DNA from: a virus
Taxonomy: Duplodnaviria > Heunggongvirae > Uroviricota > Caudoviricetes
Strand: one strand, 5' to 3'
Length of the DNA: 9,345 nt
Virus record (IMG/VR): IMGVR_UViG_2684622620_000011
Location: 1 to 9,345 of that record
Shown here: piece by piece, positions 7,421 through 8,035 of the stretch
Numbering within the stretch: the first letter of the stretch is position 1
How the letters are laid out: each line of letters begins with the position of its first letter
The notes under the pieces: model-generated
The model's input: only the letters and a program-made list of their open reading frames with translations
Database searches by the model: none
Told to the model about the DNA's origin: nothing
Position numbers and translations under genes: made by a program

Positions 7421-8035
7421 TTAAAATGGGTCCGTATTAAAGTTTTTGTTTGAATACCGTTTTTCACGTTTTCTCGGTTGCTCTGCCTCCTTCTGGATGC
7501 GTATTTTTTCGCGTGCTACGTGTTGATCAATTGGCAGGAAATGCCCATTCCGGAATTCCTGATAAATAATTTCACCTGCCCCGCCAGAACGGTTTTTACC
7601 GATAATCACCTCGGCGATACCCTTTGCAGGTGAATCAGGTGTGTAAACTTCATCGCGGTACAAAAACAAAATGCTGTCAGCGTCCTGCTCAACACTGCCG
7701 GAATCGCGCAGGTCCGACATCACCGGGCGACGCTGGCCAGCAGGTCGAGAATCCACCTGGCGGGAAAGCTGGCTAAGAGCAAAAACAGGGGTATGCAGAC
7801 GCATGGCCATAGTCTTCATGTTGCGGGAGATATGCCCGACAGCGAGATCGTGGCGCTCGGCCTTCGGTTTTTTGATCAGGCCCATGTAATCAACACCAAT
7901 CAACTTCAGGTGCGGATAACGGCGTTTATGAGTCTCTGCAATGGCGCGGATCTGCTCAATCGTCAAATCAGTGGCATCAACAATCCAGATATCGCGATCC
8001 TGCATGATTGCAAGCGCGGCGGTTAATCTGGTCAA
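7421..8035 (-). pseudogene. DnaB-family replicative helicase, C-terminal fragment only; 5' part removed by the IS insertion
   Basis: Translation carries DnaB/P22 gp12-type C-terminal motifs (DYMGLI, FALSQLSR, SDLRDSGSVEQDADSILFLYRDEVY, GIAEVIIGKNR) but no Walker A. The open frame runs up to the IS boundary at 8035/8036; the 'start' in the ORF track is a TTG artefact. Confidence 0.8.

Follow-up and report, generated by a model that had tools for sequence, protein, structure and literature searches.

The window analysed here, a 9,345-nt stretch of DNA taken at its full length, is the reverse complement of a whole draft contig, LECG01000026.1 (GCA_001309675.1), from the 98-contig assembly LECG00000000 of E. 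coli O103:H2 PARC444, a phylogroup B1 strain (PMC4563881). The contig stops at the outer ends of two copies of an IS3-family insertion sequence, one occupying positions 1-1310 on the minus strand and the other positions 8036-9345 on the plus strand. The right copy is bounded by 25-nt terminal repeats, IRL at 8036-8060 and IRR at 9321-9345 (the contig end), which are 88% complementary to each other. These imperfect inverted repeats are of the TG...CA type and begin with TGAACCGCCCCGG. Between them lie orfA (8090-8416, plus strand, 108 aa, HTH_Tnp_1) and orfB (8413-9303, plus strand, 296 aa, with the rve DDE integrase core), the two frames overlapping at ATGA. Many copies annotated 'IS3-like element IS1203 family transposase' match it at 100% identity across all 1310 nt, and we refer to it as IS629/IS1203, the two names denoting near-identical isoforms. 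The left copy is the inverted twin of the right one, with its IRL also facing inward; the two 1310-nt arms are 6725 nt apart and 100% identical, a perfect identity that may be the assembler's consensus.

The DNA between the two elements is of prophage origin. At its left edge, a prophage gene of 134 codons has been cut to a 103-aa open reading frame (1308-1619, minus strand) that ends in a TGA supplied by the left IS terminus. Three accessory genes follow, namely a 221-aa GIY-YIG/T5orf172 protein (1940-2605), a 307-aa LprI-family lipoprotein encoded on the opposite strand (3634-4557), and an ORF6N-domain protein (4735-5571) whose 278-aa frame is annotated as 262 aa. Five small genes on the minus strand, downstream of the helicase gene, then occupy 5796-7382 and encode proteins of 136, 78, 103, 74 and 73 aa, the 103-aa product being a DNA-binding protein. 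The 78-aa frame (6734-6970, minus strand) is polymerase III theta-like (HolE-like) by its match to phrog_1105 (1.1e-27), with a weak Pfam DNA_pol3_theta match. At the right edge, directly abutting the orfA-proximal end (IRL) of the right IS, lies a minus-strand remnant of a DnaB-like replicative helicase gene (7421-8035) that comprises 204 codons and a TAA stop and corresponds to codons 260-463 of the complete gene.

In translation, the remnant hits Pfam PF03796 (DnaB_C) at E = 3.5e-44, but the hit extends only from position 90 to position 242 of the 255-position profile; the first 90 or so positions, including the P-loop, are therefore missing. The remnant protein is identical to residues 260-463 of an intact 463-aa protein, WP_028985348.1 from E. 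coli APEC20/16, and its DNA is 100% identical to the 3' 615 nt of the intact 1392-nt gene. The intact allele carries an N-terminal PF00772 domain, is spanned by phrog_19 over residues 1-457, and aligns to solved DnaB helicases such as 9dls and 6bbm (E about 1e-58). Alignment to the structure chains assigns AGRPGMGKT to Walker A and FSMEM to H1a. The GxxxxGK[ST] pattern occurs once in the intact protein, as GRPGMGKT at residues 197-204 upstream of the break, and no Walker A motif lies within the 204-aa remnant. What the remnant keeps, as aligned to the DnaB motifs, is Walker B (IGVDYMGL), H3 (ALSQLSR) and the H4/arginine-finger region SDLRDSGSVEQDAD; what it lacks is the N-terminal DnaB domain, the linker helix, Walker A and H1a. 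The break, after residue 259/260, thus falls inside the RecA-like core between H1a (FSxEM) and Walker B (VDYxxL). Judged from its motif content, the remnant is a leftover of a DnaB family member and not a functional member of that family.

Helicase homology ends exactly at 8035/8036, where the IS terminus TGAACCGCCCCGG begins. The IS interrupts the helicase gene. The helicase frame itself remains open for 45 codons further into the element, and a chimeric open reading frame of 226 aa (7421-8101, minus strand), composed of 22 IS-derived codons joined to helicase codons 260-463, is annotated in GenBank as the hypothetical protein KPO71577.1. The preliminary description of this locus, made from the DNA letters of the window, had proposed a C-terminal portion of about 200 DnaB-type residues, devoid of the Walker A region and running in frame into the IS end at 8036; the DnaB_C match, the identity to residues 260-463, the position of the sole P-loop before the break and the exact point of lost homology bear out each of these statements. 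The last three helicase-derived positions, 8033-8035, read CAA, or TTG (codon 260) on the helicase strand, and represent one copy of the target duplication. A promoter and terminator scan of 7300-8500 found neither, and in particular no sigma-70-like promoter facing the helicase remnant or the chimeric frame.

The uninterrupted form of this locus is present in the E. coli APEC20/16 genome (NZ_CP127297.1), in which a prophage segment is 100% identical to window positions 1311-8035. Its helicase gene of 1392 nt encodes the 463-aa WP_028985348.1 and has TTG as codon 260. The comparison with a related prophage, which had been suggested beforehand, thus places the break at an internal point of a 463-aa gene. 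The APEC20/16 prophage is lambdoid and adjoins tRNA-Ser/mtfA. Its genes run from the integrase through the repressor, cro-like and cII-like genes to a 354-aa initiator, the helicase and a block of small genes, and then through the ORF6N, LprI-family and GIY-YIG accessory genes to Q, the lysis genes and lambda-like head genes. The initiator belongs to phrog_428 (2.2e-72), is of the replication-initiator/helicase-loader type and is called RepO in some annotations; its gene overlaps the helicase start in intact relatives. This lambdoid layout is read as a whole in APEC20/16, at its left end in a sibling assembly described below, and in PARC444 within the window. The small genes at 5796-7382 share the early-right direction, and the IS now separates them from the upstream promoter region.

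The missing 5' half of the gene was approached by modelling the N-terminal product that insertion would leave behind with target duplications of 0, 1, 2, 3, 4 and 5 bp. With a 3-bp duplication, the sequence GAT TTG TGA gives a product of residues 1-260 that stops at the TGA in the IS terminus. An exact protein look-up returned this 260-aa product as WP_054627242.1 (PDV68729.1); none of the products predicted for duplications of 0, 1, 2, 4 or 5 bp is in the protein collection. In a sibling assembly (GCA_002531455.1), contig NWSD01000043.1 (L009) carries the genes in the order mtfA, integrase, repressor, cro-like, cII-like, a 74-aa gene, the 354-aa initiator and helicase(1-260), the last lying at the contig end. 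There the sequence reads GACGATGAGGAT TTG, continued directly by TGAACCGCCCCGGGTTTCC, with 127 nt of the IRR (orfB-distal) end of the IS. The same assembly carries the left-junction protein, PDV68625.1. TTG accordingly stands on both sides of the IS, before the IRR end in NWSD01000043.1 and after the IRL end in the window, and the sibling strain therefore has the arrangement typical of a simple insertion, helN-TTG-(IRR...IRL)-TTG-helC. The 3-bp CAA duplication and the helicase N-terminus beyond the IS, both anticipated in the preliminary description, are thus borne out, the former also by the 3-bp product being the only one recorded, and both as seen in the sibling.

The N-terminal half was read in that sibling assembly, not in the contigs of PARC444 itself; in the LECG01 contigs the expected junction would join GACGATGAGGATTTG directly to TGAACCGCCCCGGG. 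WP_054627242.1 falls in the same RefSeq numbering range as two proteins of the present contig, WP_054626894.1 and WP_054626896.1, and from this accession range, the sole link, we infer that PARC444 has the N-terminal junction of its sibling. The 260-aa product is encoded on five contigs, one of them 5-10 kb long, and this last contig may be PARC444's own.

That the IS inserted and the locus was then rearranged, either by flipping of the 6.7-kb block between the inverted copies or by an adjacent deletion that removed the 5' half of the helicase gene, appears unlikely. The long, identical and inverted arms described above would suit such an event, the contig reaches no further than the outer end of either IS and so leaves the order of the flanks unfixed, and no accession of the KPO series (the PARC444 GenBank proteins) is listed for the 260-aa product. 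After an adjacent deletion or an inversion, the sequence directly past position 9345 would not be the helicase N-terminus, and given two identical copies in inverted orientation, either one may be the neighbour of the N-terminal half. Against rearrangement, however, the sibling that carries both inner junction types has the N-terminal half beside the IRR end with its TTG, and the number of WP_054627242.1 lies in the range of this contig's proteins. The 6.7-kb block may nonetheless be flipped in some or all cells, an inversion to which short reads are blind; the segment is presumably in its unflipped state, and inversion would in any event leave the conclusion of a split gene unchanged. Less probable still is that the IS-segment-IS unit moved as a composite transposon with the helicase fragment as cargo. 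Two identical elements do bracket 6.7 kb containing moron-like LprI-family, GIY-YIG and ORF6N genes, but each inner junction maps to a site at which the intact prophage runs on without a break, and the sibling has the 5' half of the helicase at the IS end in the usual prophage context beside mtfA and int. The left junction, moreover, occurs alone in the Logan assemblies SRR33975075 and SRR6112177 (L003, L005), in both of which the helicase is intact, so that the two IS copies represent separate insertions. Neither relocation of the whole unit nor a single shared target duplication is indicated, the insertions occurring separately in different samples. E. coli BCE-1 does not share the left IS junction, its IS3-family element sitting elsewhere. 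Taken together, the junctions speak for two simple insertions that arose separately in situ, of which the left one is probably the older and the one in the helicase gene the later, though excision of an IS might in principle turn that order round.

A naturally short, free-standing DnaB_C-only protein is a reading to which we assign almost no weight, even though one PHROGs family, of 184 aa and separate (phrog_11530), corresponds to residues 270-457 and two metagenome contigs (L007, 370-1761; L008, 1-771) carry the exact 204-aa frame as a gene call of its own. In both contigs the gene is full-length and bears E254Q and an in-frame TAG in place of codon 255 (M255*), five codons before the IS629 site and preceded by a small patch of substitutions. 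These are nonsense mutants, in which the TAG leads gene callers to report the identical 204-aa frame from TTG260. The 90% protein cluster consists mostly of 463-aa members, and a 204-aa product without Walker A cannot be an ATPase alone. The naturally short homologue, raised at the outset as the reading that would undo the case, was consequently rejected for this locus, where the remnant is DNA-identical to the intact gene over its 3' part (codons 260-463) and is bounded by an IS terminus. Separately, the PHROGs families of 'unknown function' that match the two halves of the helicase, phrog_23150 (residues 4-211) and phrog_11530, suggest that split or truncated helicase copies occur in phage and prophage records often enough to have given rise to families of their own.

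The helicase allele occurs in 36 of 5,426 complete E. coli genomes and is continuous across the insertion site in all 36; neither the helicase-IS629 junction nor the full window was found in any complete E. coli genome searched. The 30-nt helicase-IS junction likewise has no exact match in genome_contigs, a collection with one genome per species and hence uninformative on this point. Among sequenced phages none shares the interior of the window at the DNA level (best coverage 8%), so there is no evidence of an active-phage isolate for this prophage type. Other breaks of the gene are on record. In the closed genome of E. coli RM9387 (NZ_CP009104.1), the same gene in the same prophage family has been hit independently by an IS66-family element, ISEc23, which differs from the present case in lying about 110 nt from the start codon rather than at codon 260 (L016, 3086-6814). 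Three genomes match the helicase gene over its first 292 nt only. With the amber codon of the metagenome contigs, these sequences indicate that the helicase gene is knocked out independently in at least three ways, by IS629, by ISEc23 and by a nonsense codon.

Contigs from three unrelated assemblies (L010-L012) stop no more than 2 nt from the IS site (window positions about 8028-8035) and contain no IS sequence. Two of them, L010 and L011, run on by AC, as the intact gene does, before they stop; L012 stops at TTG itself. These contig-end partials of the 260-aa product were set aside as evidence of insertion; a branch between co-resident helicase alleles could possibly have caused their ends. 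Alleles such as those of CFSAN061769 and LD91-1 show about 81% identity in the 5' half, against 97.5% over the query that includes the 3' half. The contig ends and this contrast in identity together point to a mosaic recombination boundary near codon 260.

The helicase remnant also contains a CRISPR target. A 32-nt type I-E spacer, CGTCTGCATACCCCTGTTTTTGCTCTTAGCCA, matches positions 7770-7801 perfectly on the minus strand, and the protospacer is preceded by ATG (7802-7804), a canonical I-E PAM. One array, beside cas2e in NZ_CP019273.1, was read for the spacer itself; by BLAST, the same 41-nt match recurs in complete E. coli genomes, about 41 in all, of which many are avian isolates. It is uncommon for native E. 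coli spacers to have a clear prophage target.

In architecture, the intact allele resembles the 18/12 module of P22, having likewise the DnaB N- and C-terminal domains and lying directly downstream of the initiator gene. In sequence it is not a close relative, since the helicase of the P22-like Salmonella phage L is 27.4% identical over 93% of the length and belongs to the same superfamily. The earlier designation 'P22 gp12-type' is thus apt for the architecture only, given 27% identity to the helicase of a P22-like phage. P1 Ban is 32% identical and the helicases of Stx2a phages are about 45% identical, and the best phage match (76%) comes from a record named Stenotrophomonas phage BUCT708. 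Compared with P22 gp12, P1 Ban and the Stx-phage helicases, the window holds the last 204 residues only. In the Stx2a phage F578 (LC487997.1; L013, 1495-3888), the 45%-identical helicase is a single 797-aa coding sequence; the match falls into two pieces over 2,370 nt, about 1 kb beyond what the query requires, so that the coding sequence contains an in-frame insertion of about 340 aa, possibly an intein.

IS629 has been described as the chief force behind diversity within a phage type (PMC4587872, PMC7430833). The disruptions known from EHEC and STEC, namely stx2::IS629 and those of the roi, lysozyme and methyltransferase genes in Stx2a phages, involve the same 1310-bp IS3-family element and, as here, split a lambdoid prophage frame into two predicted proteins. 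Unlike those cases, the target in PARC444 is a replicative helicase, the prophage is a non-Stx element at tRNA-Ser/mtfA in an O103:H2 strain, and a second, inverted copy of the IS lies 6.7 kb away in the same prophage. [quoted passage not shown] There, induction, replication and packaging were tested and many 'defective' prophages proved mobile by complementation (PMC2669165), whereas the present case is read from sequence.

The most economical sequence of events, and one that we regard as highly probable, is that a 1310-bp IS629/IS1203 element split the prophage helicase gene at codon 260, with the helicase most likely, and autonomous replication probably, lost as a result. The element would have transposed into codon 260 and duplicated a 3-bp TTG (CAA on the plus strand). 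The upstream piece (residues 1-260, terminated by the TGA of the IS) keeps the N-terminal domain and Walker A; the downstream piece (260-463) keeps Walker B, H3/H4 and the arginine-finger region with no recognisable promoter before it. Because neither piece holds a complete ATP site and the downstream piece lacks a recognisable promoter, helicase function is most likely lost. The RepO-like initiator would then have no phage helicase to load, and autonomous replication after induction would be expected to fail in the absence of complementation by another prophage. A polar effect of the IS on the downstream early genes is also possible. From these features we infer a loss of prophage replication, in the sense conveyed by the word 'defective'. 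With IS629 inserted in stx2 of an Stx2 phage, downstream transcription and expression as well as plaque formation persisted (PMC7430833), and prophages with fragmented replication genes can still be amplified, packaged or transferred by way of co-resident prophages (PMC2669165). Prophages that carry IS629 or are genetically defective can thus remain inducible or open to complementation (PMC7430833, PMC2669165).

We also considered that the split might not be purely destructive, a prospect that seems very doubtful. The 226-aa chimeric product, if it were made, would include the arginine finger and could interfere with the hexameric helicase of a related phage entering the cell, resulting in superinfection exclusion; the scan of 7300-8500 revealed no promoter-like site for its expression. 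Alternatively, the inverted IS pair could render the 6.7-kb block invertible or mobilisable.

Returning to the insertional split of the helicase gene, KPO71577.1 and WP_054627242.1, two database entries now carried as 'hypothetical proteins', each represent one half of a single IS-split helicase pseudogene. Beyond this annotation the import of the case is small, in that it is a routine instance of IS629-driven prophage decay, for which STEC prophages offer ample precedent (PMC4587872), and adds one further example to it. For E. coli O103:H2 PARC444, it means that the prophage has probably lost autonomous replication while retaining its accessory genes.
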